DNA of 37,360 bases from a virus. Lineage: Duplodnaviria > Heunggongvirae > Uroviricota > Caudoviricetes. A program made the translations under genes and the position numbers. Where the stretch lies: the IMG/VR virus record IMGVR_UViG_2541047905_000010, one strand, 5' to 3'. Positions within the stretch are counted from its first letter, which is position 1. Each line of letters starts with the position of its first letter. Shown piece after piece: positions 135-24,529 of this stretch. Under the pieces are notes generated by a model. The model was not told where the DNA came from. It searched no databases and saw only the letters and a program-made list of their open reading frames with translations.

Positions 135-1205
135 TTATTTGATTTCAATTTTGTCCCACTCCCTGCCTCTGTCATCACGATACTGTGATGCCATGGTGTC
201 CGACTTATGCCCGAGAAGATGTTGAGCAAACTTATCGCTTATCTGCTTCTCATAGAGTCTTGCAGACAAACTGCGCAACTCGTGAAAGGTAGGCGGATCC
301 CCTTCGAAGGAAAGACCTGATGCTTTTCGTGCGCGCATAAAATACCTTGATACTGTGCCGGATGAAAGCGGTTCGCGACGAGTAGATGCAATTATGGTTT
401 CTCCGCCAAGAATCTCTTTGCATTTATCAAGTGTTTCCTTCATTGATATTCCGAGAGCATCAACATGCAATGCTGTTGGGATGGCAATTTTTACGCCTGT
501 TTTGCTTTGCTCGACATAAAGATATCCATCTACGATATCAGACCACTTCATTTCGCATAAATCACCAACTCGTTGCCCGGTAACAACAGCCAGTTCCATT
601 GCAAGTCTGAGCCAACATGGTGATGATTCTGCTGCTTGATAAATTTTCAGGTATTCGTCAGCCGTAAGTCTTGATCTCCTTACCTCTGATTTTGCTGCGC
701 GAGTGGCAGCGACAGGGTTTGTTGTTATATGGCCTTCAGCTATTGCCTCTCGGAATGCATCGCTCAGTGTTGATCTGATTAACTTGGCTGACGCCGCCTT
801 GCCCTCGTCTATGTATCCATTGAGCATTGCCGCAATTTCTTTTGTGGTGATGTCTTCAAGTGGAGCATCAGGCAGACCCCTCCTTATTGCTTTAATTTTG
901 CTCATGTAATTTATGAGTGTCTTCTGCTTGATTCCTCTGCTGGCCAGGATTTTTTCGTAGCGATCAAGCCATGAATGTAACGTAACGGAATTATCACTGT
1001 TGATTCTCGCTGTCAGAGGCTTGTGTTTGTGTCCTGAAAATAACTCAATGTTGGCCTGTATAGCTTCAGTGATTGCGATTCGCCTGTCTCGGCCTAATCC
1101 AAACTCTTTACCCGTCCTTGGGTCCCTGTAGCAGTAATATCCATTGTTTCTTATATAAAGGTTAGGGGGTAAATCCCGGCGCTCATGACTTCGCCTTCTT
1201 CCCAT
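135..1205 (-). CDS. int: Tyrosine integrase (lambda Int, 356 aa)
   Basis: 356-aa ORF; C-terminal HxxR...Y catalytic region (HELRSLSARLY, LLGHKSDTMASQYRDDRG) typical of lambda Int; sits next to the att core. Confidence 0.97.
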   Translation of the reverse strand: MGRRRSHERRDLPPNLYIRNNGYYCYRDPRTGKEFGLGRDRRIAITEAIQANIELFSGHKHKPLTARINSDNSVTLHSWLDRYEKILASRGIKQKTLINYMSKIKAIRRGLPDAPLEDITTKEIAAMLNGYIDEGKAASAKLIRSTLSDAFREAIAEGHITTNPVAATRAAKSEVRRSRLTADEYLKIYQAAESSPCWLRLAMELAVVTGQRVGDLCEMKWSDIVDGYLYVEQSKTGVKIAIPTALHVDALGISMKETLDKCKEILGGETIIASTRREPLSSGTVSRYFMRARKASGLSFEGDPPTFHELRSLSARLYEKQISDKFAQHLLGHKSDTMASQYRDDRGREWDKIEIK

Positions 1206-1401
1206 TTCTGATCCTCTTCAAAAGGCTACCTGTTACTGGTCGATTTAAGTCAACCTTTACCGCTGATTCGTGGAACAGATATTCTCTTCCATCCTTAACC
1301 GGAGGAGGGAATATCCTGCATTCGCGCACCCATCGACGAATTGTTTCAAGGCTTCTTGGGCGTCGCTGGCGAGCGTTCCACTCCTGAAGTGTCAAGTACA
1401 T
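1183..1401 (-). CDS. xis: Excisionase (lambda Xis, 72 aa)
   Basis: 72-aa ORF MYLTLQEWNARQRRPRSLETIRRWVRE... overlapping the int start; classic int-xis overlap. Confidence 0.95.
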   Translation of the reverse strand: MYLTLQEWNARQRRPRSLETIRRWVRECRIFPPPVKDGREYLFHESAVKVDLNRPVTGSLLKRIRNGKKAKS

Positions 1402-1426
1402 CGCAAAGTCTCCGCAATTACACGCA

Positions 1427-1451
1427 AGAAAAAACCGCCATCAGGCGGCTT
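1427..1451 (-). terminator. Intrinsic terminator for leftward transcription upstream of xis
   Basis: Minus-strand RNA gives hairpin GCCGCC-UGAU-GGCGGC followed by a U-run (plus strand aaaaaaccgccatcaggcggctt). Confidence 0.55.
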
Positions 1452-1956
1452 GGTGTTCTTTCAGTTCTTCAATTCGAATATTGGTTACGTCTGCATGTGC
1501 TATCTGCGCCCACAGCATCCAGTGGTTATAGCAGTCGCTGATGTTCTCGGCTTCGATAACTCTGTTGAATGGTTCTCCATTCCATTCACCTGTAACTCGG
1601 AAGTGCATTTATCATCGCCATAAAACAAAACTCGCCGTAGCGAGTTCAGATAAAAGAAAACCCGCACTCGGCGGGTTCGCATTCGTTCAAATTGCGTTTA
1701 CTTCTTGGCGTTCTGTTCATCCATATCGATATACCATGGGTTGCTTCCCTTGGGCATGTTTAACGACTGCTCGCGATAGTATCTGATGCGCTCCATGAAA
1801 TACTCGCGTGAGTGCTCAGGTTGCTCTCATGATACCTGCTCAGTGATAACAGGTATGTTAAGGCGCTCTCTGTACTCCATGCCTGATGCTGCAAGGTCAA
1901 CGTTTACCTTGTTCTGTTTTTCTTTCGATTTCTCGGCGATGTTATGCCTGACATTG

Positions 1957-2241
1957 TCAACCCGCCTCCTTCTGAACATAACGGTTATAAATCAGTCCCT
2001 GAGGGCCATAAGGAAGCGGGATGTGCAACTCCTCTGGTTCAGAAACTATCCATTCCCCGGCCATCTCCGCTGGAGAGGTAATGATAAGTTGTTTGCTAAT
2101 AAAAGGACCACTCCTCTCAACAACAAGCTTACCATCTTCATTAATAAAAGCTTGGATGTCAGGTGTGCTTCCACACTTGGTGATGCAGCGTTTGAACATT
2201 TTGTGTCCCCCCATTTTATGGACGGGGTAATTATAACACAT
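1957..2241 (-). CDS. Hypothetical early-left protein, Ea8.5-like by position
   Basis: 94-aa minus-strand ORF in the slot between xis and the ea22-like region; cysteine-containing N-terminus. Assignment is positional only. Confidence 0.4.
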   Translation of the reverse strand: MCYNYPVHKMGGHKMFKRCITKCGSTPDIQAFINEDGKLVVERSGPFISKQLIITSPAEMAGEWIVSEPEELHIPLPYGPQGLIYNRYVQKEAG

Positions 2242-2325
2242 TGAAATATAGTAATATTTGACGTAGATTTCTTTTGATCTATAAGCGATTTTTTAATGCT
2301 TTTAAGTTATAAATACTTGTTTTCA

Positions 2326-2901
2326 TCACCCATCTTGCTGCGGTGCTACTATTGAAAAGTACTCACACCCTTTAGCCCAAATAGTTTTGATAGTTGTCCA
2401 ACTGACTGGAACCTTGATTTCGATTCTTCCGCTGCCGTCACAAGTTTCGCAATCATCATCACCAAAGCATTCCGGGCAGCTTATAAACGTAGTTTCTGAA
2501 AATTCACCGGATAGCACACCCTTAGCGCCGTTCTCAGCGGTTAGTTTCTTCGGCACTATAACCCAACCATCCGGAGTTACCGGAGAATTGCCATTTATAT
2601 CGAAGTTTGGCTCTGCGTCCTGAACCAGGAGGATGTAACCATTCTTGGCAGTATCAAGTTCTAACGCCTCGGTGACGGTACCGAAATAGCGATTACCTAA
2701 ATCCGCATCACAAGTGCTTACATCAATGGAAACCTCCATGCCTTCGATTAATTCTGGCAAGTTGTAAGTTTGGCTTACAGGTTCTGCTCCCAGTGATGCC
2801 AGTGCAATTCGTGCCAGTTCCATTTGTTCGCCACGAGTAAGCCCGTTTTCAAGCGGATTTTTAATGAACAATTCAATACGTTCTTTGGTAATAGTGGTCA
2901 T
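2326..2901 (-). CDS. Hypothetical protein with C-terminal CxxC...CxxC zinc-ribbon motif
   Basis: 191-aa ORF; AAGGA ribosome-binding site 8 nt upstream of ATG; motif CPECFGDDDCETCDGSG; tightly packed with the upstream gene. Confidence 0.6.
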   Translation of the reverse strand: MTTITKERIELFIKNPLENGLTRGEQMELARIALASLGAEPVSQTYNLPELIEGMEVSIDVSTCDADLGNRYFGTVTEALELDTAKNGYILLVQDAEPNFDINGNSPVTPDGWVIVPKKLTAENGAKGVLSGEFSETTFISCPECFGDDDCETCDGSGRIEIKVPVSWTTIKTIWAKGCEYFSIVAPQQDG

Positions 2902-2911
2902 TTGTTAGTCC

Positions 2912-3667
2912 TTAAACTGCTAGTTGCAATTGCATTTCAAAGCGGTCGCGTTGTTCACAATACGCAAGAGAACCAGGGCTATTGTGTGCCTCAATCCGTT
3001 CTACCATTAATGCTGCGCGTGTCTCTTTACTTGCAGGTGCATAAGCCCCAGACCAGGCTTTATCAATACCGATGTTTCGAGCGACGTTCGTACTATCTGC
3101 GCTGGCTAAGGGTAATTTTGTGAATATCAGCGGATTTAACATGCGCAATCCATGTAGTTTCGTAACCAGCTGACCATGCCCATCAACAATGTGACGAATC
3201 AGGTCTTTCATTCTGGCTACCGCAAGAGTTGGGCGCTTTACGTCATAGTCGCCACAACTACCGATAGCCACTCGCGGAAACTCATTGCACAAATGAATAA
3301 ATCGCTCGTCACTTTCATTCATGTGCCACACTGGAACGCCAGCTAGTTTTCCGTGAGGCCACTCATTCAGAAGCGCATCATTTTCCTCCTCTCCGCCATC
3401 AATAACATCCGGGATAATGGCAAAATCGAATCTTGGGTGATTCTTCCAGCGAGCAACAAACTCGTAGTAATCGCTCCAGTCGATTTTGTTTTTGCCAGCT
3501 GCTTTCCAGGCGGTGAATGCACCGTTGTCCAGCGCGAACGACTGACAGTATTCAGCCGCGAGATTGATCTGGCCTGAATGCGCAAAACTGATAAACGCAT
3601 GTCGCCCTTTCCATGCTCTCATTGCGCACGTATCAGGAGTAATAGGCCCACCGTGGTAGTGAATCAT
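2912..3667 (-). CDS. Hypothetical protein (251 aa from the second Met; the track ORF extends to 3709)
   Basis: AAGGAGAG ribosome-binding site 6 nt upstream of the ATG at 3667, placed 1 nt after the upstream gene's stop codon; no family recognised by eye. Confidence 0.55.
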   Translation of the reverse strand: MIHYHGGPITPDTCAMRAWKGRHAFISFAHSGQINLAAEYCQSFALDNGAFTAWKAAGKNKIDWSDYYEFVARWKNHPRFDFAIIPDVIDGGEEENDALLNEWPHGKLAGVPVWHMNESDERFIHLCNEFPRVAIGSCGDYDVKRPTLAVARMKDLIRHIVDGHGQLVTKLHGLRMLNPLIFTKLPLASADSTNVARNIGIDKAWSGAYAPASKETRAALMVERIEAHNSPGSLAYCEQRDRFEMQLQLAV

Positions 3668-3668
3668 C

Positions 3669-4076
3669 TCACTCTCCTTTGATGCGAATGCCAGTAGCGC
3701 GGATTGCATCGATGACTTCAGAAACTTTGTATGCCATTACCGTTTGGTAATCATCGTGAAAATCTGTTCGATGAAGCATGCTGCTACGTTCCGGGAGCAG
3801 TATTTCCCGCGCTTCCAGTTCTGCAATGCGCTTTTTTGCTGCTTCCAGTTCATCCAGTAATTCCAGCACGGTAGCCGGATTAGCCTTGGCAACAAAATCC
3901 CGGACTGGCTTACAATCAATCTCCGCAATGGGTTGATACGATGTGTAGCCATGCTGTCTTGTATAACTACCGTGACGAATAACGAAAAAATCACCATTTA
4001 TTTTTTTAGCCTGCCACTTATCTTCACCGGCTTTCTCTGCCGCTTCACGCAGTGCCTGAGAGTTAATTTCGCTCAC
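3669..4076 (-). CDS. Ead/Ea22-like protein
   Basis: 135-aa ORF with a coiled-coil segment (LLDELEAAKKRIAELEAREI) characteristic of Ead/Ea22-like proteins in lambdoid early-left operons. Confidence 0.55.
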   Translation of the reverse strand: MSEINSQALREAAEKAGEDKWQAKKINGDFFVIRHGSYTRQHGYTSYQPIAEIDCKPVRDFVAKANPATVLELLDELEAAKKRIAELEAREILLPERSSMLHRTDFHDDYQTVMAYKVSEVIDAIRATGIRIKGE

Positions 4077-4294
4077 GTCGAACCTCTCTGTTTACTGATA
4101 AGCTCCAGATCTTGCTGGCAACTGGCACAAGTCCGACAACCCTGAACGGCCAGTCGTCTTCGTTCATCTATCGGATCGCCACACTCACAACAATGAGTGG
4201 CAGATATAGCCTGGTGGTTCAGGCGGCGCATTTTTATTGCTGTGTTGCGCTGTAATTCTTCAATTTCTGATGCTGAATCAATTATGTCTGCCAT
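4073..4294 (-). CDS. DksA/TraR-family C4 zinc-finger protein (lambda Orf73-like)
   Basis: 73-aa ORF with CCECGDPIDERRRLAVQGCRTCASCQ, the four-cysteine finger of the TraR/DksA family. Confidence 0.75.
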   Translation of the reverse strand: MADIIDSASEIEELQRNTAIKMRRLNHQAISATHCCECGDPIDERRRLAVQGCRTCASCQQDLELISKQRGST

Positions 4295-4392
4295 CTTTCA
4301 TTAATCCCTGAATTGTTGGTTAATACGCTTGAGGGTGAATGCGAATAATAAAAAAGGAGCCTGTAGCTCCCTGATGATTTTGCTTTTCATGT

Positions 4393-4608
4393 TCACCGTT
4401 CCTTAAAGACGCCGTTCAACATGCCGATCGCCAGGCTTAAATGAGTCGGTGTGAATCCCATCAGCGTTACCGTTTCGCGGTGCTTCTTTAGTACGCTACG
4501 GCAAATGTCATCGACGTTTTTATCCGGAAACTGCTGTCTGGCTTTTTTGATTTCAGAATTAGCCTGACGGGCAATGCTGCGAAGGGCGTTTTCTTGCTGA
4601 GGTGTCAT
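4393..4608 (-). CDS. Hypothetical small protein (71 aa from the internal Met)
   Basis: Minus-strand ORF in the early-left operon; start chosen at MTPQQENALR. Confidence 0.45.
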   Translation of the reverse strand: MTPQQENALRSIARQANSEIKKARQQFPDKNVDDICRSVLKKHRETVTLMGFTPTHLSLAIGMLNGVFKER

Positions 4609-4684
4609 TGAACAAGCCCCATGTCGGCAAGCATAAGCACACAGAATATGAAGCCCGCTGCCAGAAAAATGCATTCAGTGGTTG

Positions 4685-4876
4685 TCATACCTGGTCTCTC
4701 TCATCTGCTTCTGCTTTCGCCACCATCATTTCCAGCTTTTGTGAAAGGGATGCGGCTAACGTATGAAATTCTTCGTCTGTTTCTACTGATATTGGCACAA
4801 ACCTGACTCCAATTTGAGCGAGGCTATGTGCCATCTCGATACTCGTTCTTAACTCAACGGGAGATGCTTTGTGCAT
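4685..4876 (-). CDS. Hypothetical small protein (lambda orf63-like position)
   Basis: 63-aa ORF immediately upstream (in the leftward operon) of the exo-proximal small ORF. Confidence 0.45.
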   Translation of the reverse strand: MHKASPVELRTSIEMAHSLAQIGVRFVPISVETDEEFHTLAASLSQKLEMMVAKAEADERDQV

Positions 4877-5037
4877 ACAGCTCCCCGTTTATTATTTATC
4901 TCCTCAGCCAGCCGCTGTGCTTTCAGGGGATTTCTGATAACAGAAAGGCCGGGAAATACCCAGCCTCGCTTTGTAATGGAGTAGACGAAAGTGATCGCGC
5001 CCACCCGGATATTATCGTGAGGATGCGTCATCGCCAT
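4849..5037 (-). CDS. Hypothetical small protein (lambda orf60a-like position)
   Basis: 62-aa ORF overlapping the exo start region; positional assignment. Confidence 0.35.
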
Positions 5038-5708
5038 TGCTCCCCAAATACAAAACCAATTTCAGCCAGTGCCTCGTCCATTTTTTCGATGAACTCCGGC
5101 ACCATCTCGTCAAAACTCGCCATGTACTTTTCATCCCGCTCAACCACGACATAATGCAGGCCTTCACGCTTCATACGCGGGTCATAGTTGGCAAAGTACC
5201 AGGCATCTTTTCGCGTCACCCACATGCTGTACTGCACCTGGGCCATGTAAGCCGACTTTATGGCCTCGAAACCACCGAGCCGGAACTTCATGAAATCCCG
5301 GGAGGTAAACGGGCATTTCAGCTCAAGGCCATTGCCGTCACTGCATAAACCATCGGGAGAGCAGGCGGTACGCATACTTTCGTCGCGATAGATGATCGGG
5401 GATTCAGTAACATTCACGCCGGAAGTGAATTCAAACAGAGTTCTGGCGTCGTTCTCGTACTGTTTTCCCCATGCCAGCGCCTTAGCATTAACTTCCGGAG
5501 CCACACCGGTGCAAACCTCAGCCAGCAGGGTGTGGAAGTAGGACATTTTCATGTCAGGCCACTTTTTTCCGGAGCGGGGTTTTGCTATCACATTGTGAAC
5601 TTCTGAAGCGGTGATGACGCCGAGCCGTAATTTGTGCCACGCATCATCCCCCTGTTCGACAGCTCTCACGTCGATTCCGGTACGCTGCAGGATAATGTCC
5701 GGTGTCAT
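5028..5708 (-). CDS. exo: Lambda exonuclease (Red-alpha, 226 aa)
   Basis: 226-aa ORF matching lambda Exo from memory ([40 protein letters not shown]...). Confidence 0.97.
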
Positions 5709-6490
5709 GCAGCCACCTTCTGCTCAGTGGCTTTCTGTTTCAGGAATCCAAGAGCTTTCACTGCTTCGGCCTGTGTCAGTTCTGACGATGCGCGAATGTC
5801 GCGGCGAAATATCTGGGAACAGAGCGGCAATAAGTCGTCATCCCATGTTTTATCCAGGGCAATCAGCAGAGTGTTAATCTCCTGCATGGTTTCATCGTTA
5901 ACCGGAGTGATGTCGCGTTCCGGCTGACGTTCTGCAGTGTATGCGGTATTTTCGACAATGCGCTCGGCTTCATCCTTGTCATAGATACCCGCAAATCCGA
6001 AGGCCAGACGGGCACACTGAATCATGGCTTTATGCCGTAACATCCGTTTGGGATGCGACTGCCACGGCCCCGTAATTTCTCTGCCTTCGCGGGTTTTGAA
6101 TGGTTCGCGGCGGCATTCATCCATCCACTCGGTAACGCAGATCGGATGATTACGGTCCTTGCGGTAAATCCGGCATGTACAGGATTCATTGTCCTGCTCA
6201 AAGTCCATGCCATCAAACTGCTGGTTTTCATTGATGATGCGGGACCAGCCATCAACGCCCACCACCGGAACGATGCCATTCTGCTTATCAGGAAAGGTGT
6301 AAATTTCTTTCGTCCACGGATTAAGGCCGTACTGGTTGGCAACGATCAGTAATGCGATGAACTGCGCATCGCTGGCATCACCTTTAAATGCCGTCTGGCG
6401 AAGAGTGGTGATCAGTTCCTGTGGGTCGACAGAATCCATGCCGACACGTTCAGCCAGCTTCCCAGCCAGCGTTGCGAGTGCTGTACTCAT
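5705..6490 (-). CDS. bet: Beta single-strand annealing protein (Red-beta, 261 aa)
   Basis: 261-aa [62 protein letters not shown]...; overlaps the exo start. Confidence 0.97.
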
Positions 6491-6495
6491 CCGTT

Positions 6496-6792
6496 TTATA
6501 CCTCTGAATCAATATCAACCTGGTGGTGAGCAATGGTTTCAACCATGTACCGGATGTGTTCTGCCATGCGCTCCTGAAACTCAACATCGTCATCAAACGC
6601 ACGGGTAATGGCTTTTTTGCTGGCCCCGTGGCGTTGCAAATGATCGATGCATAGCGATTCAAACAGGTGCTGGGGCAGGCCTTTTTCCATGTCGTCTGCC
6701 AGTTCTGCCTCTTTCTCTTCACGGGCGATCTGCTGGTAGTGACGCGCCCAGCTCTGAGCCTCAAGACGATCCTGAATGTAATAAGCGTTCAT
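6496..6792 (-). CDS. gam: Gam, RecBCD inhibitor, short form only (98 aa)
   Basis: [21 protein letters not shown]...[10 protein letters not shown]; the reading frame upstream of this Met has an in-frame stop and no start codon. Confidence 0.9.
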
Positions 6793-6867
6793 GGCTGAAC
6801 TCCTGAAAATGGCTGTGAAAATATCGCCCGCGAAATGCCAGGCTGATTAGGAAAACAGGAAAGGGGA

Positions 6868-7158
6868 TTAGCGATTCAGGCCGTTACCGCGTCCGTCGAG
6901 AAAAACTTCCACGAGCAAATCACGGGTATAAGTGCGCTCGATGCCGCGATGCAGATAAAGCCGTCCGCGTAAATTAGCTGATGCAGTCCAGGTACCATCT
7001 TTGTGTTTGACCAGCATTCCTGGCATGACCGCACCTCGATTAACGGTCTGCGTTCCGTAATGTTGATGAACCATAAAAACTCCTGCCCGTAAGCTGGGCT
7101 GCTGAACATATAGAGACTTCTGCGCGTATTCAGGCGGTGGATGGCCGCCGGTTGTCAT
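6868..7158 (-). CDS. Hypothetical protein in the first-gene position of the leftward early operon (96 aa from ATG; track ORF extends to 7278 from TTG with an Arg-rich N-terminus)
   Basis: Only substantial minus-strand ORF between the candidate pL/OL and gam; not recognisably N, kil or cIII. Confidence 0.35.
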
Positions 7159-7295
7159 AACTAAGTCGCCTCGTTGAAGCGACTGAGGTATGAAGTGTTG
7201 AGTTGATTTCAGCTGGTCACACCGACGTTCACGCGTCCGCTTCACCCCTCGCACTCCCCGAAGCCTGCTGAAATTCAAACTGCGGATCTAAGCGG

Positions 7296-7347
7296 TCATC
7301 GCAACGGTGAAACAGGTGGTTACCGTATCGTTGTGTCGTTGCGATGA
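7296..7347 (-). promoter_or_regulatory. 11-bp perfect inverted repeat (tcatcgcaacg / cgttgcgatga) with 30-bp spacer, in the leader of the leftward early transcript
   Basis: Read directly from the sequence; no U-tract follows, so it is not an intrinsic terminator. Confidence 0.3.
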
Positions 7348-7363
7348 ATTTATTTAAAACTAT

Positions 7364-7430
7364 AGTTGTTTTATCGTCAACAACAAAAGTTGTTTTGTCG
7401 GTTGTTTTAAATATAACTGGTTGTATTTAG
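7364..7430 (-). promoter_or_regulatory. Candidate OL/pL operator-promoter region
   Basis: gttgtt-N8-aacaac at 7365-7384 has the same half-sites as the palindrome between the repressor and cro-like genes; further GTTGT repeats follow at 7389-7425. Confidence 0.35.
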
Positions 7431-7516
7431 GATGGATTTATTTTGTGACTTGCATCGCATAGCGATAACTGAAGTGAGGTGTGGTGGTTTTTTGGACGGT
7501 ATGAGTTATGAGGGGG

Positions 7517-7546
7517 AGGAAAAGAAAACCCGGCGCGGTTGCCGGG
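7517..7546 (-). terminator. Intrinsic terminator downstream of the lipoprotein gene
   Basis: Minus-strand RNA: CCCGGC-AACCGC-GCCGGG followed by UUUUCUUUUC, 9 nt after the stop codon. Confidence 0.65.
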
Positions 7547-7554
7547 TATGATTA

Positions 7555-7935
7555 TCAGTCAGCCCAACCTGATTTCGAGTTTATTTGGGTTTCTGACATT
7601 GTGTATTTCTTAATCGTGTCATCGTTAAAAAGAATAGTAAGTTCTTTTTTCGTACCGTTCGTTCCATTATGGAATAATCCATAGAATGGAATAAAAGTGG
7701 TGCCATTAACTTTTACTTTTGCAAAGGCGTACTTCCAGATCTCGTTTCCACTGTCAGTATATGAAACAGCATCAGGAGAACCAAAGTAAGATTTAACCTC
7801 ATTCTTGGTTGTTTTACCTTCCTGAAGTTTAGACTGGACACTAATTTCAGTTTCATTTTTGAGTTGCTGGTTGCCTGAAGAAGCACACCCAGCCAATACA
7901 GATGCCATCATGGCAGCGATTAGGATTTTTCTCAT
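7555..7935 (-). CDS. Lipoprotein (signal peptide with LAGC lipobox), BamE/OmlA-like fold suspected; lysogenic-conversion moron
   Basis: MRKILIAAMMASVLAGCASS...; AT-rich codon usage; sits directly downstream of the repressor gene on the same strand and has its own terminator. Confidence 0.8.
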   Translation of the reverse strand: MRKILIAAMMASVLAGCASSGNQQLKNETEISVQSKLQEGKTTKNEVKSYFGSPDAVSYTDSGNEIWKYAFAKVKVNGTTFIPFYGLFHNGTNGTKKELTILFNDDTIKKYTMSETQINSKSGWAD

Positions 7936-8164
7936 TTTATGTTTCCATTCATTATAATCAGAAACATCTTAACATAATGATTCGAAATAAAAACCGCTAC
8001 GAGATAGGGGGACATTTTGCTGACAGTAGCAACAAATCTCAGCTAACAACGAGAATATTTACTGAAATATGCAAACAGATTTGGCGTTCTTATAGAGAAT
8101 TTAGTGCAATATCTAATCCGAGTGGTATAAACCTTAACCTTCGCTCCCTTAAGTCGTAGATAAA

Positions 8165-8854
8165 TTAACCATGCTTCCTGTACGTCTGCGGCATGCTTCC
8201 AATGACCTTACCGAATATGAACACCCGGTTCATCTCGTCTTTCTCGATCGGGTCCCACGGCGAGTAGCTCTTGTTATCAGAGATAACCAGCAGCTTATCC
8301 TTCATCATTTGAAGACGTTTTACATGGGCAGTGTCGTCGTACAGAAACGCATAGATGCCATCACCGTCGAAAGATTTAACAGTGATATCAACGAACAGCA
8401 GGTCACCTGGTTCGATCGTCCCTGACATGCTGTCACCTCGCACGTTAATGATGCGGATATTTTCCGCCTTCCTGCCATCGAACATGTGACGAGCATCGTC
8501 AAACGAGTACTCAACCGAGCGTAGAACTTCTACAAACTCACGGTTGATTACACCTGGCCCGGCACTGACTTCTATATCAAGAACGTCAATTTTGAAGTAT
8601 TTGGAATGGCTGACAGTTGATTGTATTGGTTGCACTGTACTGTCTGACATATTTCCAACGCCAGAAGATAACCATTCTGCGCGCACACCCAAAGCGTTCG
8701 CGATCTCCACGATTTTAGTTGTTTGGTTAGCTTTCCCTGTTTCGATTTTCTGAATAGCAGCCTGGCTAACCCCGACCAAATCCCCAAGCGCCTTTTGTGT
8801 AAGGCCTCGCGCTAATCTGGCTTCTTTAAGTCTTTCTGAGAGTGTTGTTTTCAT
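8165..8854 (-). CDS. Prophage repressor, HTH (XRE) + S24 LexA-like peptidase domain (CI-type, not lambda cI)
   Basis: 229 aa; N-terminal LTQKALGDLVGVSQAAIQKIETGK helix-turn-helix; C-terminal Ser/Lys autocleavage module (GDSMSGT...KRL); divergent from the cro-like gene. Confidence 0.9.
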   Translation of the reverse strand: MKTTLSERLKEARLARGLTQKALGDLVGVSQAAIQKIETGKANQTTKIVEIANALGVRAEWLSSGVGNMSDSTVQPIQSTVSHSKYFKIDVLDIEVSAGPGVINREFVEVLRSVEYSFDDARHMFDGRKAENIRIINVRGDSMSGTIEPGDLLFVDITVKSFDGDGIYAFLYDDTAHVKRLQMMKDKLLVISDNKSYSPWDPIEKDEMNRVFIFGKVIGSMPQTYRKHG

Positions 8855-8958
8855 AGATCAAATGTACAACCAAGGTTTTATTTCATCAAACGAAAATGGT
8901 TGTTGACTAAAAACAACCATAGTTTTAATCTTGATTCGGATTAACCACGGAGGTTGTT
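8855..8958. promoter_or_regulatory. OR / pRM-pR divergent promoter-operator region
   Basis: Palindrome atggttgtt-gactaaa-aacaaccat at 8896-8920 overlapping a TTGACT -35-like hexamer; further ACAACC/GGTTGT half-sites at 8866-8876 and 8952-8957. Confidence 0.6.
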
Positions 8959-9189
8959 ATGAACCCAGCAATCAAAACAGCGATCAATATCGTTGGTTCA
9001 CAAAAGAAACTAGGCGATGCCTGCGAAGTTTCACAGCAGGCCGTCTATAAGTGGCTTCACAACAAAGCAAAGGTATCCCCTGAACATGTCGGCAGCATTG
9101 TTACGGCTACTGGTGGAGTTGTGAAGGCATACCAGATTCGCCCGGATCTTCCGAAGTTGTTTCCACACACCGAAAAGAACGCAGCTTAA
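8959..9189 (+). CDS. Cro-like regulator (YdaS/Cro family HTH)
   Basis: 76-aa ORF divergent from the repressor; GGAGG ribosome-binding site; resembles Rac/CP-933P YdaS-type Cro. Confidence 0.8.
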   Translation: MNPAIKTAINIVGSQKKLGDACEVSQQAVYKWLHNKAKVSPEHVGSIVTATGGVVKAYQIRPDLPKLFPHTEKNAA

Positions 9190-9201
9190 ATTTCCATTTC
9201 A

Positions 9202-9213
9202 CGCTCTTTAACA
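9202..9213 (+). promoter_or_regulatory. boxA-like antitermination element (CGCTCTTTAACA)
   Basis: Matches the boxA consensus GCTCTTTAACAA at the position expected for nutR (just downstream of cro); no obvious boxB hairpin follows. Confidence 0.4.
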
Positions 9214-9258
9214 ATAAGCAATCAACTTAACAGTCAATTCAAACTAAAGGAGTCAATT

Positions 9259-9798
9259 ATGCAACCACTTACATACCAACAGACTAGCGGATTTATTCCG
9301 ACTGCGGTGATAAATCGTTCTCAAACAAAACAAGCTCCAGGCCACGAAAAAATCCGTGATGCCGTCCGCGCCTGGTCGGCTGTAGATAATCAGGATGTCG
9401 TTGCCGCACTCATTGTGAATGAGTATCGGGAGCAGGGCGACGGCACCATCGATTTCCCTGATGATGTCAGCCGTGCACGCCAGAAGCTGTTCCGCTTCCT
9501 CGATAACAAATTCGATTCTGAAAAATACCGAAATAACGTGCGTGAACTGACCCCGGCAATTCTGGCGGTACTACCGCTGGAATATCGCGGTTACCTGGTT
9601 GAGCAGGATAGCTTCATGACTCGGTTGGCTGAAATGGAAAAGGAACTCAGTGAGGCAAAACAGGCTGTCATTCTCAACGCACCACGCCACCAGAAACTGA
9701 AGGAAATGAGTGAAGGTATTGTGTCGATGTTTCGTGTGGACCCGGATCTGGCTGGTCCATTAATGGCGATGGTGACCACCATGCTGGGGGCAATATGA
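9259..9798 (+). CDS. YdaT-family protein (proposed CII functional analogue)
   Basis: 179 aa; occupies the cII slot; motif LTPAILAVLPLEYRGYL resembles the YdaT family as recalled. Confidence 0.65.
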   Translation: MQPLTYQQTSGFIPTAVINRSQTKQAPGHEKIRDAVRAWSAVDNQDVVAALIVNEYREQGDGTIDFPDDVSRARQKLFRFLDNKFDSEKYRNNVRELTPAILAVLPLEYRGYLVEQDSFMTRLAEMEKELSEAKQAVILNAPRHQKLKEMSEGIVSMFRVDPDLAGPLMAMVTTMLGAI

Positions 9799-9884
9799 CA
9801 GGTTCAGAAATGGCGAAAGTCGGTCTGCGGGAACAGAACCGACTTTCAGGTGCAAATCGTAACACACTCATTGCGGGAGGAATT

Positions 9885-10814
9885 ATGGCAAACACTGCTG
9901 AGATATTCAATTTTCCAGTGCCGGATGCGGCACAAAAGGAGCCGCGCGTGGCAGATCTCGATGATGGTTATACGCGCATTGCAAATGAGTTGCTGGAAGC
10001 TGTGATGCTGGCCGGATTAACACAGCACCAGCTTCTGGTCTTCCTGGCTGTCATGCGCAAAACATATGGCTTTAATAAAAAACTGGATTGGGTGAGCAAC
10101 GAGCAACTTTCCGAGTTGACCGGGATATTGCCGCACAAGTGTTCTGCTGCAAAAAGCGTTCTGGTAAAGCGTGGGATTCTTATTCAGAGCGGGCGGAATA
10201 TCGGCATTAATAATGTGGTCAGTGAATGGTCAACATTACCCGAATCAGGTAAGAAAAATAAAGTTTACCTGAAAGAGGTAAATTTACCTGAATCAGGTAA
10301 GAAAAGTTTACCCAAATCAGGTAAAGGCGTTTACCCGAATCAGGTAAACACAAAAGACAAACTAACAAAAGACAATATAAAACCTTTTTCGTCCGAGAAT
10401 TCTGGCGAATCCTCTGACCAACCAGAAAACGATCTTCCTGTGGAGAAACCAGATGCTGCAATTCAGAGCGGCAGCAGGTGGGGGACAGCAGAAGACCTGA
10501 CCGCCGCAGAGTGGATGTTTGACATGGTGAAGACCATCGCGCCATCAGCCAGAAAACCGAATTTTGCAGGGTGGGCTAACGATATCCGCCTGATGCGTGA
10601 ACGTGACGGACGTAACCACCGCGACATGTGCGTGCTGTTCCGCTGGGCATGCCAGGACAACTTCTGGTCCGGTAACGTGCTAAGTCCGGCCAAACTCCGC
10701 GACAAGTGGACCCAACTCGAAATCAACCGTAACAAGCAACAGGCTGGCGTGACAGCCGGAAAATCAAAACTCGACCTGACAAACACTGACTGGATTTATG
10801 GGGTGGATTTATGA
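9885..10814 (+). CDS. O: Replication initiator O (lambda O family); track ORF starts at 9795
   Basis: N-terminal region VADLDDGYTRIANELLEA...RKTYGFNK matches lambda O; ori iterons embedded in the coding sequence; GGAGG ribosome-binding site before ATG 9885. Confidence 0.9.
   Translation: MANTAEIFNFPVPDAAQKEPRVADLDDGYTRIANELLEAVMLAGLTQHQLLVFLAVMRKTYGFNKKLDWVSNEQLSELTGILPHKCSAAKSVLVKRGILIQSGRNIGINNVVSEWSTLPESGKKNKVYLKEVNLPESGKKSLPKSGKGVYPNQVNTKDKLTKDNIKPFSSENSGESSDQPENDLPVEKPDAAIQSGSRWGTAEDLTAAEWMFDMVKTIAPSARKPNFAGWANDIRLMRERDGRNHRDMCVLFRWACQDNFWSGNVLSPAKLRDKWTQLEINRNKQQAGVTAGKSKLDLTNTDWIYGVDL
10236..10385. repeat. Origin of replication: four to five ~19-bp iterons (tttacccgaatcaggtaag-type) plus A-rich tract
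   Basis: Direct repeats at about 10236-10253, 10283-10301, 10307-10325, 10329-10347 with a degenerate copy at 10264-10282, then cacaaaagacaaactaacaaaagacaatataaaa. Confidence 0.85.
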
Positions 10815-11512
10815 AAAACATCGCCGCACAGATGGTTAACTTTGACCGTGAGCAGATGCGCCGGATCGCCAACAACATGCCGGAACAGTACGACGAAAAG
10901 CCGCAGGTACAGCAGGTAGCGCGGATCATCAACGGTGTGTTCAGCCAGTTACTGGCAACTTTCCCGGCGAGCCTGGCTAACCGGGACCAGAACGAACTGA
11001 ACGAAATCCGCCGCCAGTGGGTTCTGGCTTTCCGGGAAAACGGGATCACCACAATGGAACAGGTTAACGCAGGAATGCGCGTAGCCCGTCGGCAGAATCG
11101 ACCATTCCTGCCATCACCCGGGCAGTTTGTCGCCTGGTGCCGGGAAGAAGCATCCGTTACCGCCGGACTGCCAAACGCCAGCGAGCTGGTTGATATGGTT
11201 TACGAGTATTGCCGGAAGCGTGGCCTGTATCCGGACGCAGAGTCTTATCCATGGAAATCAAACGCGCACTACTGGTTGGTTACCAACCTGTACCAGAACA
11301 TGCGGGCCAATGCGCTGACTGACGCGGAATTACGGCGTAAAGCTGCCGATGAGCTGACCTGTATGACCGCGCGAATTAACCGTGGTGAGGCGATACCTGA
11401 ACCAGTAAAACAACTTCCTGTCATGGGCGGTAGGCCTCTAAATCGTGCACAGGCTCTGGCGAAGATCGCAGAAATCAAAGCGAAGTTCGGACTGAAAGGA
11501 GCAACTGTATGA
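10811..11512 (+). CDS. P: Replication protein P (DnaB helicase loader, 233 aa)
   Basis: 233-aa ORF matching lambda P from memory (MKNIAAQMVNFDREQMRRIANNMPEQYDEKPQVQQVA...). Confidence 0.96.
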   Translation: MKNIAAQMVNFDREQMRRIANNMPEQYDEKPQVQQVARIINGVFSQLLATFPASLANRDQNELNEIRRQWVLAFRENGITTMEQVNAGMRVARRQNRPFLPSPGQFVAWCREEASVTAGLPNASELVDMVYEYCRKRGLYPDAESYPWKSNAHYWLVTNLYQNMRANALTDAELRRKAADELTCMTARINRGEAIPEPVKQLPVMGGRPLNRAQALAKIAEIKAKFGLKGATV

Positions 11513-11682
11513 CGGGCAAAGAGGCAATTATTCATTATCTGGAGACGCACAAGAGCTTCTGTGCGCCGGACGTTGCTGCGACAACAGGTGTGACATTAAC
11601 CAGCATAAATCAGGCTGCGGCAAAAATGGCGCGGGCAGGAATCCTGGTCATTGATGGTAAGGTCTGGCGAACGTTTGTTTAA
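11509..11682 (+). CDS. ren: Ren-like protein, C-terminally truncated (57 aa)
   Basis: MTGKEAIIHYLETHKSFCAPDVAATTGVTLTSINQAAAKMARAGILVIDGKVWRTFV matches the N-terminal ~55 residues of lambda Ren as recalled; start overlaps the P stop (ATGA). Confidence 0.7.
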   Translation: MTGKEAIIHYLETHKSFCAPDVAATTGVTLTSINQAAAKMARAGILVIDGKVWRTFV

Positions 11683-11828
11683 CGGTTAGCTACTCAGGAT
11701 GATAGGGCGGGGCAAGTGAGTATGAAGCGGATTTTCAGGAATGCCATCAGAGTTTGGAAATAAAGTGGGTTTTCTAGTGGCAAGAGACTTGATAATATTT
11801 AGTTCTTTAAATCCAAGGAGATAGGGTT

Positions 11829-12323
11829 ATGAGAAAATTTATTATAGCCTTTGTCATAAGTGCCTCGTTTACTGCAAATGCTGGTGTAGAGAAGTTAGGG
11901 TCGTGGATAACAAAGTCTGAGATAAATAAAATGACTGACCAGACTGACTTTGTGGCTCTTAATTTATCACCAGATTCATATAACAAAGCAGGTACTGATC
12001 GTGCAACTTCACTGGTGTTGCGTTGTAGTGATAACAAAACAGATGCCTATTTATCATTCAATGATTATATGGGTTCGGACAACCCAAGAATTACAGTGCG
12101 GTTAGATGGCGGAAAGCCGGTCAAGAGTGCTTGGGGAGGTGGGGAAGGCGGTGATTCTGCATTTGCTCCACAACCAATACAATTTATAAAGACCTTGGCT
12201 AAGCATAAAAAAGCTATTTTTGGGTTTGAACCTTATGGATCAACTATGCAAGTAGTTGAGTTTGACTTGTCTGAGATTGATAAGGTTGTGGAAAAAATTT
12301 CACAGTCTTGCAATTGGAAATGA
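11829..12323 (+). CDS. Secreted/periplasmic hypothetical protein (Sec signal peptide, two Cys); AT-rich moron
   Basis: 164 aa; MRKFIIAFVISASFTANA signal peptide; AAGGAGA ribosome-binding site; followed by an intrinsic terminator; lower GC than the flanks. Confidence 0.7.
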   Translation: MRKFIIAFVISASFTANAGVEKLGSWITKSEINKMTDQTDFVALNLSPDSYNKAGTDRATSLVLRCSDNKTDAYLSFNDYMGSDNPRITVRLDGGKPVKSAWGGGEGGDSAFAPQPIQFIKTLAKHKKAIFGFEPYGSTMQVVEFDLSEIDKVVEKISQSCNWK

Positions 12324-12340
12324 CAAAAAAATTTCATATG

Positions 12341-12368
12341 AACCCAGTTGGCGCTGGGTTTTTTATTT
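12341..12368 (+). terminator. Intrinsic terminator after the secreted-protein gene
   Basis: aacccag-ttggcg-ctgggtt hairpin followed by ttttatttc. Confidence 0.65.
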
Positions 12369-13096
12369 CAGTAGCCAATAATGCATTCAAAATCTCTTAC
12401 TTGAGAAACGGCCTATTTGAGATTTCAGTCGTGGCAGGATGATCAGTTGATTCGAGTATTGACGCATTTGCGTTCGGAGCGATTACAGTAGATTGTAAAT
12501 AATAATGAGAAACACATAGCCACATAGCCACCCCGTGGTATTGAAACCATATAATGTTGGATTTGAAAACAGATCTTTTCCCATGTATTAATAACTACAT
12601 CCCCGCGAGTGATTCAAAAAGGAGGGCCCAATTTTGTCCGAGTTTTTGTATTCCCCCGCATGCCGCTGCGGAGCACTACATCTGAGTGTCTGACTAGGGG
12701 ATAAAATTAGACTGGATAGTGAGAAGAAAGTGGCGCGCTAGGCTGTGCCGAGTGCTACCAGTACACCTTGGGGGTGTGCAGCTTTCGCCGAGACTGTAGT
12801 GGGTATCGGTTAATGCACGAAAAACCGAGAGGTCAGACAACCAATTTGCCGTAGGATTGTTTCCGGTGCGATACCGGTCTACTAACTGAAAGCAATGCGA
12901 AAAAGCATAAACTCGGTCCTTCAGTCGCCCTACACACTATTTACTAAGAAGGGCTGAAGCATGGATACAATTATTACATGGATGGGAGATCGTCTGTTGG
13001 GGGGGACACAAAAATCCGATCTGCAGCAGATGGCGATCACTGGATTAACTTCCGCGATTTGTTCAACAATTTTGTACACTGAAAAATTAAAACATG

Positions 13097-13105
13097 GTGA
13101 GCCTA
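13097..13105. repeat. IS1 target-site duplication, left copy (gtgagccta)
   Basis: Identical 9-mer directly flanks both IS1 ends. Confidence 0.9.
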
Positions 13106-13120
13106 GGTAATGACTCCAAC

Positions 13121-13624
13121 TTATTGATAGTGTTTTATGTTCAGATAATGCCCGATGACTTTGTCATGCAGCTCCACCGATTTTGAGAACGACAGCGACT
13201 TCCGTCCCAGCCGTGCCAGGTGCTGCCTCAGATTCAGGTTATGCCGCTCAATTCGCTGCGTATATCGCTTGCTGATTACGTGCAGCTTTCCCTTCAGGCG
13301 GGATTCATACAGCGGCCAGCCATCCGTCATCCATATCACCACGTCAAAGGGTGACAGCAGGCTCATAAGACGCCCCAGCGTCGCCATAGTGCGTTCACCG
13401 AATACGTGCGCAACAACCGTCTTCCGGAGCCTGTCATACGCGTAAAACAGCCAGCGCTGGCGCGATTTAGCCCCGACATAGCCCCACTGTTCGTCCATTT
13501 CCGCGCAGACGATGACGTCACTGCCCGGCTGTATGCGCGAGGTTACCGACTGCGGCCTGAGTTTTTTAAGTGACGTAAAATCGTGTTGAGGCCAACGCCC
13601 ATAATGCGGGCTGTTGCCCGGCAT
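13121..13624 (-). CDS. insB: IS1 transposase InsB (expressed as InsAB' by -1 frameshift)
   Basis: 167-aa ORF matching IS1 InsB from memory ([58 protein letters not shown]...). Confidence 0.93.
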
Positions 13625-13818
13625 CCAACGCCATTCATGGCCATATCAATGATTTTCTGGTGCGTACCGGGTTGAGAAGCGGTGTAAGTGAACTGCAGTT
13701 GCCATGTTTTACGGCAGTGAGAGCAGAGATAGCGCTGATGTCCGGCGGTGCTTTTGCCGTTACGCACCACCCCGTCAGTAGCTGAACAGGAGGGACAGCT
13801 GATAGAAACAGAAGCCAC
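13543..13818 (-). CDS. insA: IS1 InsA (transposition inhibitor / N-terminal part of InsAB')
   Basis: 91-aa [45 protein letters not shown]... Confidence 0.93.
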
Positions 13819-13873
13819 TGGAGCACCTCAAAAACACCATCATACACTAAATCAGTAAGTTGGCAGCATCACC

Positions 13874-13882
13874 GTGAGCCTA
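13874..13882. repeat. IS1 target-site duplication, right copy (gtgagccta)
   Basis: Identical to 13097-13105. Confidence 0.9.
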
Positions 13883-14144
13883 TTAACCCAAACGAAGAAG
13901 AAAAACTTTATAGGCTTTGGTATGAAGGAAACGCTTGAAAGAATAAAGCACAATTAAAACCTTTGATTTGCGATAATCAACTTGCCATAATTAAGTAATC
14001 GGAGCCTGAACAACTCCGGTGACTTCTGCGCTAAACGGGGACGTTTATGCGCACATACAATCCAAACTATCTTCTCCTTTCACAGATGCAGAAATGCACC
14101 TGCAATTCTTTGCATCTAGCGTTTGACCTCTGTGGAGGTGAAGC

Positions 14145-14600
14145 GTGAACCTCCCACAAGATGGCATCAAATTGCATCGCGGTAACTTCACCGCTATCGG
14201 TCAGCAGATCCAGCCTTATCTGGAAGACGGCAAATGCTTTCGCATGGTGCTTAAACCGTGGCGAGAGAGACGCAGTCTTTCCCAGAATGCACTCAGCCAC
14301 ATGTGGTACAGCGAAATCAGTGAATACCTCATCAGCAGGGGGAAATCGTTCGCTACCGCAGCATGGGTAAAAGATGCTCTCAAACACACATACCTCGGTT
14401 ATGAAACCAAGGACCTGGTTGATGTCGTAACCGGCGAAATCACTACTATCCAGTCGTTACGCCATACCTCCGATCTTGATACCGGAGAGATGTATGTCTT
14501 CCTGTGTAAGGTTGAAGCCTGGGCGATGAATATTGGCTGCCACCTGACTATTCCGCAGAGCTGCGAGTTCCAGCTGCTGCGCGACAAGCAGGAGGCGTAA
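14145..14600 (+). CDS. ninB: NinB-family recombination protein (DLP12 YbcN-like)
   Basis: 151 aa with GTG start; [20 protein letters not shown] motif typical of the NinB family; first gene of the nin module. Confidence 0.75.
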
Positions 14601-14770
14601 TGGCTACACCGCTTATTCGTGTCATGAACGGACACATCTACAAAGTACCAAATCGTCGTAAGCGTAAACCTGAGCTGAAGCCATCCGAAATACCAACACT
14701 GCTCGGATATACCGCTAGCCTGGTTGATAAAAAATGGTTGCGACTGGCAGCAAGGAGGAATCATGGCTGA
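14600..14770 (+). CDS. ninE: NinE-like small protein (56 aa)
   Basis: Small ORF overlapping the ninB stop (TAATG); basic KPxxxP...WLRLAARR pattern resembles lambda NinE as recalled. Confidence 0.55.
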   Translation: MATPLIRVMNGHIYKVPNRRKRKPELKPSEIPTLLGYTASLVDKKWLRLAARRNHG

Positions 14771-15053
14771 TTTGAGAAAAGCAGCGCGTGGTCGGGAATG
14801 CCAGGTAAGAATCCCTGGCGTATGTAATGGCAACCCTGAAACGTCTGTACTGGCACATATCCGGCTGACTGGATTGTGCGGCACCGGTACGAAACCGCCA
14901 GACCTGATTGCCACCATTGCATGTTCTGCCTGCCACGACGAAATCGACCGCCGCACGCATTTTGTTGACGCTGGATATGCAAAAGAATGCGCGCTGGAAG
15001 GTATGGCGAGAACGCAGGTTATCTGGCTGAAAGAGGGGGTAATTAAGGCGTGA
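14763..15053 (+). CDS. DUF1364-family zinc-finger protein (DLP12 YbcO-like, 96 aa)
   Basis: CQVRIPGVC...[11 protein letters not shown] cysteine motifs; gene immediately precedes rusA as in DLP12. Confidence 0.7.
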
Positions 15054-15412: not shown

Positions 15413-15549
15413 TGTTTGAGTTTTATATGGCAGAACTTCTTCGCCACCGCTGGGGGCATCTGCGCTTATATCGTTTCCCCGGTTCTGTTTTGACCGATTA
15501 CCGAATACTGAAGAATTACGCCAAAACCCTGACAGGAGCAGGAGTATGA
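15409..15549 (+). CDS. YlcG-like small protein (46 aa)
   Basis: Small ORF overlapping the rusA stop (ATGATG); corresponds to the ylcG slot between rusA and Q in DLP12. Confidence 0.45.
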
Positions 15550-15634
15550 AGTCAGAGATAACAATCAACTAATACTGTTTTGTTGATTTTTGCTTGTAAT
15601 TGGCGTTCTGGTCTGATTTTTGTGGAGTAAGTTG

Positions 15635-20848: not shown

Positions 20849-24529
<3,681 letters not shown>

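Follow-up and report, generated by a model that had tools for sequence, protein, structure and literature searches.

A BamE-like lipoprotein gene as replaceable cargo between the repressor and the left operator of a lambda-type prophage

What might a prophage gain from a small lipoprotein gene placed directly behind its repressor gene? The question is raised by a stretch of 37,360 nucleotides (nt) of DNA from a Caudoviricetes virus (record IMGVR_UViG_2541047905_000010), which was analysed at its full length, is referred to here as the window, and provides the coordinates used below. An open reading frame (ORF) on the minus strand at positions 7555-7935 encodes a protein of 126 residues with the N-terminus MRKILIAAMMASVLAGC and the lipobox L-A-G-C, which ends at Cys17. 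The repressor gene, the first gene of the immunity transcript, lies on the same strand at 8165-8854 and encodes a CI-type protein of 229 residues with HTH_3 and Peptidase_S24 domains (PF01381, E = 5.4e-13; PF00717, E = 1.2e-18) that matches the transcriptional repressors of phrog_4 (E = 9e-73). The lipoprotein gene follows downstream across a 229-nt spacer. An initial annotation, made from the sequence of the window, had reported this gene, its lipobox and its position behind the repressor, and both the ORF and the lipobox were confirmed. We are highly confident that the gene is a mobile accessory gene, or moron, in the slot between cI and the immunity terminator, and that its product is a lipoprotein combining an α-α-β-β-β domain of the BamE/BLIP type with a conserved β-hairpin carrying an FIP motif.

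The position of the gene is defined by the operators of the immunity region. Within the 37 kb there are exactly two copies of the palindrome GTTGTT-N7/8-AACAAC, against a chance expectation of 0. One copy, the left operator OL (GTTGTT-N8-AACAAC, 7365-7384), lies to the left of the terminator and adjoins a PL-like promoter, TTGACG-17-TTAAAT on the minus strand, the hexamers of which were read from the sequence. The second copy (8899-8917) lies between cI and a cro-like gene. The gene order across the region is kil, PL/OL, terminator, lipoprotein gene, cI, PRM/OR and cro. As the two operator copies flank this segment, the lipoprotein gene sits between cI and OL, where phage lambda has rexA and rexB. 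The layout is lambda-type, with the lipoprotein gene replacing rexAB by position, as the initial annotation had suggested, and the variable content of the slot in the sister phages PhiR34_1 and PhiR5_1 agrees with this assignment. The two loci share the position, the strand and an immunity terminator at the end, but the equivalence is positional only, since no homology to RexA or RexB was found in Pfam, PHROG, NCBIfam or PADLOC. They also differ in what they encode. The rexAB pair comprises a cytoplasmic sensor and a membrane channel, whereas the window carries one small exported lipoprotein, whose gene is preceded by the 229-nt spacer and may have its own promoter there.

Comparison with related phages revealed the boundaries of the inserted DNA. 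The closest relative is Escherichia phage PhiR26_1 (PV340555.1), a lambda-like temperate phage of the PhiR series, which is 99.9% identical to the window over 7400-8900 and labels the lipoprotein gene merely "hypothetical protein / putative lipoprotein". Over the whole window the match is mosaic, covering 4115-11753 (98%), 13959-19412 and 19703-37360 with an overall identity of 95-98%. The segments 1-4115 and 11753-13959 differ from PhiR26_1; the left end bears a lambda-type integrase gene instead (135-1205, minus strand), and the nin region differs as well. The possibility that the window is PhiR26_1 itself was rejected on account of this mosaic match, which indicates a close relative, that is, a sister prophage. 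The slot was compared with that of PhiR34_1 and PhiR5_1, two phages that share the repressor and the left arm with the window and match its flanks with 95-96% identity as far as the cI stop codon and again from the terminator hairpin onward. Between these two points lie 617 bp in the window, 122 bp without a gene in PhiR34_1 and 1730 bp in PhiR5_1, where a HipA-like kinase and a partner under the name HipD are encoded (L017 1805-3378). PhiR5_1 offers a natural comparison, with the pair as candidate cargo for defence. The replaceable cassette of the window (7548-8164, minus strand) consists of the spacer and the lipoprotein gene and fills the interval between the stop codon of cI and the terminator that the phages share.

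The terminator itself belongs to the phage backbone. Scanning and folding located an intrinsic, tImm-like terminator of the immunity transcript at 7520-7547 (minus strand), which sits 8 nt after the lipoprotein stop codon and consists of the stem CCCGGC-AACCGC-GCCGGG (7529-7546) followed by the run TTTTCTTTT. Its folding energy of -18.2 kcal/mol (z = -2.6 relative to shuffled sequences) bears out the strong terminator described by the initial annotation. The same element is retained in PhiR34_1 and PhiR5_1, both of which lack the lipoprotein gene, and also in Enterobacter prophages. The idea that the cassette supplies its own terminator was rejected, because the alignment with PhiR34_1 and PhiR5_1 places the hairpin in the shared backbone. 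The slot is a cargo hot spot, and the terminator ends the immunity transcript whatever the cargo. Set against the definition of a moron by Juhala and Hendrix, as summarised in PMC3594210, the cassette is extra DNA (617 bp in place of the 122 bp of PhiR34_1) and deviates in base composition, with a GC content of 38.1% in the gene (35% at third codon positions) and 34% in the spacer, compared to 47% in cI, 52% in kil and bet, and 51.4% in the window. It brings no terminator of its own, the strong one that it uses being that of the backbone. The AT-rich composition and the cassette boundaries support the view of the initial annotation that the cargo was acquired horizontally.

Within E. coli the cassette is uncommon and nearly uniform. 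This type of cI, at a coverage of at least 80%, is present in 1520 of 5426 complete genomes, and the cassette in 69 of them (1.3% of the 5426), always on the chromosome and with at least 99% identity across all 617 bp. In the two cassette-bearing genomes examined it comes after the same cI protein, and the lipoprotein is 99-100% identical among the closest E. coli relatives. In one genome (H42, NZ_CP100994.1 3597643-3599035) the cassette is split by an IS1B element.

The N-terminus of the protein has the features of an exported lipoprotein. The predicted signal peptide covers residues 1-16, and the segment MRKILIAAMMASVLAG-C17-ASS conforms to the lipobox rule [LVI][ASTVI][GAS]C with no Asp at position +2. 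The Cys17 codon lies at 7887-7885, and Cys17 is invariant in 80 distant family members. It is followed by Ala at +2, a short linker and the BamE-like domain (residues ~30-123). By the classical sorting rule, Ala at +2 after the lipidated Cys directs the protein to the outer membrane, so an outer-membrane location facing the periplasm is predicted.

Profile searches assigned the protein to phrog_3135 (E = 3e-48), its sole significant PHROG match. The Pfam BamE family PF04355 was matched below threshold (E = 1.6e-4; score 21.8 bits, gathering threshold 23.2), NCBIfam release 20 gave matches at the level of the signal peptide only, and none of the anti-phage defence models of PADLOC-DB v2 matched at E <=1. 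An exhaustive phmmer search of 1.84 billion representatives collected 1332 clusters at E <=0.001, 309 of them at E <=1e-10. Among 80 aligned members, which share 28-60% identity with the query, Gly52 is invariant, like Cys17, and G21, N22, P54, W67, Y69, P83, F103, V108 and G123 are nearly so. Taken singly, 67 of these 80 members match PF04355 at E <=0.01 (best 4e-9), and comparison of the family profile with E. coli BamE by hhalign gave a probability of 93% (E = 3e-7). The structure predicted by AlphaFold2 from 40 sequences has a mean pLDDT of 74, with values above 89 for residues 31-70 and up to 95 at residues 101-110; confidence is low for the signal peptide and for the tip of a hairpin at residues 78-88. 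Structural similarity search against the PDB using Foldseek returned BamE chains for all of the best 8 matches, and a fold search of BFVD gave weak matches only, to unannotated SmpA/OmlA proteins of Pseudomonas phages. Altogether, profiles and the predicted model confirm that the protein is BamE/OmlA-like at the level of fold and distant homology, in line with what the initial annotation had offered as an impression.

BamE (SmpA/OmlA; PF04355) is likewise a lipoprotein of the outer-membrane type, of ~110 residues, and NCBI's annotation pipeline (PGAP) names most E. coli copies of the prophage gene BamE. Compared to BamE, the prophage protein has an identity of just 22-24%, a conserved hairpin insertion of 13 residues and a different N-terminal segment. 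Since its gene is prophage-borne cargo found in 1.3% of E. coli genomes, the protein is no orthologue of the host BamE; the gene comes in addition to the host bamE, and binding to BamA or BamD is putative. On the sequence level, the insertion and the divergent N-terminus argue against a simple equivalence with the BamE of the β-barrel assembly machinery (BAM) complex. The PGAP name overstates the relationship, and "SEN1984 family lipoprotein", used in one recent RefSeq annotation of an identical E. coli gene, is more neutral. SEN1984 lies on ROD21, an excisable island of Salmonella Enteritidis, and encodes a lipoprotein of 125-126 residues that is BamE-like by Phyre2 (PMC10655114). It belongs to the same family according to the NCBI naming of the identical E. 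coli gene, is carried by an island rather than a prophage, and adds no mechanism.

The most distinctive part of the protein is the β-hairpin insertion specific to this family, encoded by codons 77-89 (NGTTFIPFYGLFH; 7669-7707, minus strand). It corresponds to a 13-residue gap in BamE in the hhalign alignment, extends the central β-hairpin relative to BamE and contains the near-invariant FIP motif. The proline P83 is conserved in at least 90% of the 80 distant members, and residues 81-103 are identical in every Enterobacterales copy compared. The pattern of conservation makes the insertion and the strand that follows it the best candidate for a functional site.

Homologues with 71-89% identity are common in Citrobacter, Enterobacter, Cronobacter, Kluyvera, Leclercia, Phytobacter, Scandinavium and others. 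In all ten Citrobacter and Enterobacter loci that were read, the gene lies downstream of a prophage repressor gene on the same strand, in some of them behind a 302-residue gene of unknown function inserted between the two, and Salmonella phage S107 shows the same arrangement. The surroundings vary: the repressors include a 155-residue type with an HTH alone and S24 types of 240-251 residues, and the left arms encode RecET, Erf or lambda Red. Homologues with 63-89% identity were found in three prophage slots, namely after cI, before the tape-measure gene and after Q. In Serratia and relatives, the copies of the tail slot lie between the tail chaperone and tape-measure genes beside a SocA_Panacea gene or a YafO toxin gene; one 65% copy in this slot adjoins Arc and a P22-type antirepressor, and a 66% copy is placed after the Q antiterminator. 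In these Serratia prophages (L018-L020 5381-5668, plus strand), an ORF of 95 residues starts at the lipoprotein stop codon and precedes the tape-measure gene. It was set aside, having no PHROG match, no annotated counterpart in Klebsiella phage RAH1 and none in the window.

More distant relatives extend this picture. Klebsiella phage RAH1 and Lambdavirus PDP110P1 have copies with 46-47% identity, that of RAH1 directly upstream of the tape-measure gene; the record of PDP110P1 is unannotated. A 32% relative is placed after the integrase gene of Pseudomonas phage Lodos, and in Pseudomonas phage vB_Pae_U7 and Alteromonas phage P24 relatives precede the tape-measure gene. One 44% relative adjoins ParA/ParB genes, probably on a plasmid. 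Relatives with 38-48% identity, from Betaproteobacteria and other sources (Paraburkholderia, Comamonas, Neisseria and a marine metagenome), are found among ordinary chromosomal genes, with KsgA, TIM, SecG, DbpA, DsbA and carbonic anhydrase as neighbours; a 64% copy, also chromosomal, adjoins transporter genes. A scan by pattern across 185,579 species representatives yielded 122 confirmed relatives with a sparse and patchy distribution; among 25 Enterobacterales representatives, classified with a small marker panel, 5 occupy the repressor slot, 7 the tail slot and 13 were unclassifiable. Comparison of the window gene with the 63-89% homologues gave a dN of 0.14 with saturated dS and a dN/dS ratio of 0.05-0.07, a ratio that speaks of strong purifying selection on the Enterobacterales clade. 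The simplest history would be that a bacterial envelope lipoprotein was captured by mobile elements and is now selected cargo that hops between the standard moron slots, a capture like that proposed for HK97 gp15 and YebO.

A cargo gene that acts in the lysogen should be expressed there, and the spacer bears on this point. Its AT-rich part at 7976-8164 (minus strand) is specific to this E. coli lineage: among 50,697 phage records it matched PhiR26_1 alone. It contains no canonical terminator; a scan of the 229-nt spacer found no hairpin followed by a T-run, and its RNA fold is no stabler than that of shuffled sequences (z = -0.42). The spacer aligns to the position where other prophages carry a terminator hairpin. 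An ORF of 85 residues on the plus strand across the spacer (7902-8159) has no PHROG match and was treated as non-coding. Since the spacer lacks a terminator, transcripts from PRM or, during establishment, from PRE should reach the lipoprotein gene and the shared terminator. Judging from the sequence, the gene is probably transcribed in the lysogen by such read-through.

In addition, the gene probably has a promoter of its own. The candidate (7966-7993, minus strand) was identified by consensus match and comprises a -35 hexamer TTTTTA (7993-7988), a 16-nt spacer and an extended -10 element TGtTAAGAT (7974-7966). A block of ~45 nt upstream of the gene, which includes the extended -10 element, is conserved in the window and in Salmonella, Citrobacter and Enterobacter prophages; the -35 hexamer reads TTGACC in the Citrobacter copies and the weak TTTTTA in the window. 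In Salmonella phage S107 and in the Citrobacter and Enterobacter prophages, a terminator hairpin of the backbone type is followed by the conserved 45-nt block and then by the gene, so those copies need a promoter of their own. The candidate promoter would leave a leader of ~23 nt including a GGA ribosome-binding site (7946-7944). A TATAAT hexamer at 7956-7951 was rejected as the -10 element, because it lies 15 nt from the ATG and leaves no space for the GGA site; it also reads TGCAAT in all other prophages compared. Read-through and this candidate promoter each predict that the gene is expressed in the lysogen.

Two further elements were seen near the ends of the gene. The predicted 5' leader contains a near-palindrome, GATTATAATG (7950-7959, minus strand), which is a perfect palindrome, GATTGCAATC, in all other prophage copies and, by its symmetry, could be a regulator binding site. 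On the other side, a promoter-like sequence, TTGCGA-16-TATAGT at 7339-7366 (plus strand), faces the 3' end of the lipoprotein gene. At the equivalent site, Citrobacter, Enterobacter and Salmonella prophages carry a convergent ORF of 68-75 residues (phrog_3975 or phrog_3946); no related ORF was seen at 7339-7366 in the window, where no direct search for one was made. The promoter-like site could drive an antisense RNA or be a relic. As partners of the lipoprotein the convergent ORFs were rejected, since they belong to two different PHROGs and no counterpart was seen in the window.

What, then, might the protein do? We propose that in the lysogen the lipoprotein domain hangs in the periplasm on a linker of ~12 residues, where it would bind a periplasm-exposed target and stop incoming phages at the envelope. 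Like BamE and Llp with their own barrels, it might attach to an outer-membrane β-barrel on the periplasmic side; like Ltp in Gram-positive hosts, it might instead catch the tail tip or the tape-measure protein of a siphophage trying to enter. Either way, the mode of action would be superinfection exclusion rather than cytoplasmic immunity. That the lipoprotein blocks superinfection at the envelope is a tentative proposal, which we regard as possible but somewhat short of probable and which draws on context and fold only. Proteins with the same fold bind partners, examples being BamE with BamA and BamD, TpgA with an autotransporter barrel, BLIP with β-lactamases and BtiO with an effector of the type VI secretion system (T6SS); the BamE/BLIP-type fold is a recurrent periplasmic protein-binding module. 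In well-studied phages the slots in question carry genes for exclusion or defence, namely rexAB and HK97 gp15; the neighbours seen here are HipA-like or of the toxin-antitoxin type. The company in the slot, together with the binder fold, makes superinfection exclusion the preferred, best explanation.

Several phage lipoproteins offer a precedent for such a mechanism. Llp of phage T5 and Cor of phages phi80, N15 and HK022, which exclude FhuA-dependent phages, are small lipoproteins at the inner leaflet of the outer membrane and act on a β-barrel from the periplasm, in the case of Llp on FhuA (10.64898/2026.03.26.714494; PMC3594210). The two serve as a working analogy for the mechanism of the window protein, but no sequence similarity to Cor or Llp was found in PHROGs or Pfam, and no chain of Llp, Cor or an FhuA complex was among the best structural matches listed, which are headed by BamE. 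They differ also in that the window gene is not linked to receptor-binding genes and that exclusion is known for Llp and Cor only. HK97 gene 15, the first moron described, mediates superinfection exclusion and occupies a slot between the tail chaperone and tape-measure genes (PMC3594210). That slot is occupied by homologues of the window lipoprotein in phages of Serratia, Klebsiella, Raoultella, Phytobacter and Pseudomonas, and gp15/YebO likewise has chromosomal relatives. However, gp15 is an inner-membrane protein of different sequence, and the gene of the window lies in the immunity region. The lipoprotein Ltp, expressed from the prophage of Streptococcus thermophilus phage TP-J34, takes part in superinfection exclusion (PMC3952083). 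In contrast to the window protein, Ltp belongs to a phage of a Gram-positive host and is surface-exposed. Reportedly, it is also the product of a lysogeny-module gene and has a different fold, with the tape-measure protein as its target. In concept the protein resembles Llp, Cor, Ltp and gp15, yet sequence and structure comparison found no homology to any of those that were testable.

A number of points weigh against superinfection exclusion. Searches of the literature found no phenotype for SEN1984, for BamE-like or OmlA-like prophage proteins or for the PhiR phages. PADLOC returned no match, and PHROG and NCBI give the family no function. The receptor blocking in the manner of Cor and Llp, or the serum resistance, that the initial annotation had suggested found no support here. 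Cargo slots also house virulence or fitness genes such as bor, lom and porins, which makes guilt by association weak. The gene lacks the linkage to receptor-binding genes seen for cor and llp, and the same protein accompanies different tail modules, a poor fit to the masking of one specific receptor. The candidate promoter is based on a consensus match. Moreover, the relatives among ordinary chromosomal genes suggest that the ancestral role was probably in envelope physiology.

This last point leads to the possibility that the gene is an envelope fitness or virulence factor in the manner of Bor, which would help the lysogen survive serum, osmotic or envelope stress or colonisation, with no direct effect on phages. 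We consider this rather unlikely, while noting that it accords with the housekeeping neighbourhoods of the chromosomal relatives, with the presence of the family member SEN1984 in the pathogenicity island ROD21 of Salmonella Enteritidis, and with the bor, lom and porin-type morons that this prophage type already has (by the PhiR26_1 annotation, most of them inside the window). The colonisation defect linked to that island was reported for the neighbouring SEN1982 only, with no phenotype for SEN1984 (PMC10655114). In the cargo slots the gene is accompanied for the most part by genes of defence or toxin-antitoxin systems rather than of virulence, and the protein has no match to Pfam Bor (PF06291) at E <=1; the sister phage has a bor gene of its own, annotated at another place. 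It is far less credible, indeed highly improbable, that the gene is a passenger without a selected function, that is, a bacterial lipoprotein gene gained by illegitimate recombination and not yet lost. The existence of chromosomal relatives and the presence of the cassette in 69 E. coli genomes, compared to 1520 with the cI type, would suit a passenger, but the low dN/dS with saturated synonymous sites, the identity of residues 81-103 across genera and the conservation of the upstream regulatory block would not. Nor would the independent recurrence in three prophage cargo slots, along with the distant copies beside an integrase gene, on a probable plasmid and on an island. The initial annotation had named clear homology to a housekeeping lipoprotein picked up passively as an outcome that would count against its proposal; relatives of 38-48% among chromosomal genes do exist, and the passive part of that description is disfavoured by the purifying selection and the use of three phage slots.

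Two other readings start from the fold and the hairpin. As a BamE mimic, the protein could dock on the host BAM complex or on BamA alone, either replacing BamE or sitting next to it, and alter the assembly of outer-membrane proteins or the surface conformation of BamA, which we regard as improbable. BamE modulates the conformation of BamA, and BamA is the receptor for short-tailed Shiga toxin (Stx) phages and for contact-dependent inhibition (CDI) toxins. E. coli BamE is also the best structural and profile match, across the whole BamE fold. However, the low identity, the Pfam score below gathering, the 13-residue insertion and the absence of a counterpart of the N-terminal RPDINQGNYL of BamE speak against such mimicry, and OsmE, BLIP and BtiO share the fold and have functions unrelated to BAM. 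The protein could also be a periplasmic immunity or inhibitor protein that neutralises an enzyme or toxin of the periplasm, for example an effector of the T6SS, a domain of a colicin or bacteriocin, or a muramidase from phage or host. The conserved exposed hairpin could serve as an inhibitory loop and members occur on probable plasmids and islands besides phages, but no cognate toxin gene adjoins in any context examined and the cassette of the window holds a single gene, which leaves this reading with a small chance. A bolder form of the exclusion proposal would have the SEN1984-family lipoproteins of phages, plasmids and islands act as BamE mimics from the periplasm on BAM or another essential barrel, with the FIP hairpin altering the surface or assembly of receptors. 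We give it little credence at present. If true, one lipoprotein could confer broad phage exclusion, perhaps also against CDI toxins or bacteriocins that need that barrel, and would represent a new mechanistic class of superinfection exclusion.

The surrounding regions of the window have features of their own. The genes that the PhiR26_1 annotation calls "Cro" and "cII" (8959-9189 and 9259-9798, both plus strand) encode a YdaS-like protein (PF15943) and a YdaT-domain protein (PF06254), a Rac-type pair rather than lambda cro and cII. No ORF for an N-like antiterminator lies between PL/OL and kil (7075-7420). A block of ~60 nt at 7133-7195, which lies just upstream of the probable start of kil and also overlaps it, shares 94-97% identity with Enterobacter prophages that are unrelated otherwise, and it holds the stem-loop GTCGC-N9-GCGAC. 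A search of the entire window against Rfam at gathering thresholds gave zero matches, so the spacer and the PL-kil region are not explained by a known RNA element. In the hot spot of the nin region, PhiR26_1 has the defence gene PD-lambda-1, whereas the window has an ORF of 164 residues (11829-12323, plus strand) with a weak Pfam match to VasI of type VI secretion (E = 2.9e-6, slightly above the gathering score). The same hot spot contains an IS1 transposase gene (13121-13624, minus strand).

The family itself is already catalogued, as phrog_3135 and as the SEN1984 family. A lipoprotein moron next to a repressor is unsurprising to a phage biologist, and there is as yet no pointer to an unusual mechanism; what is new is that the fold on which this envelope lipoprotein cargo, predicted to be expressed in the lysogen, is built had not been connected with such a role. 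Even if the exclusion proposal does not hold, the label "outer membrane protein assembly factor BamE" on prophage genes is misleading and calls for caution. Prophage cargo slots are a productive source of new anti-phage and host-fitness functions, and most small envelope proteins in them have no assigned role. The locus described here provides a clean test case, as it consists of a single gene for 126 residues with natural isogenic comparators that share the repressor and the flanks and have either an empty slot or the HipA-like pair. If superinfection exclusion is true, the BamE/BLIP-like fold would be new among the few exclusion lipoproteins that act in the periplasm, and SEN1984 and phrog_3135 would gain a function.

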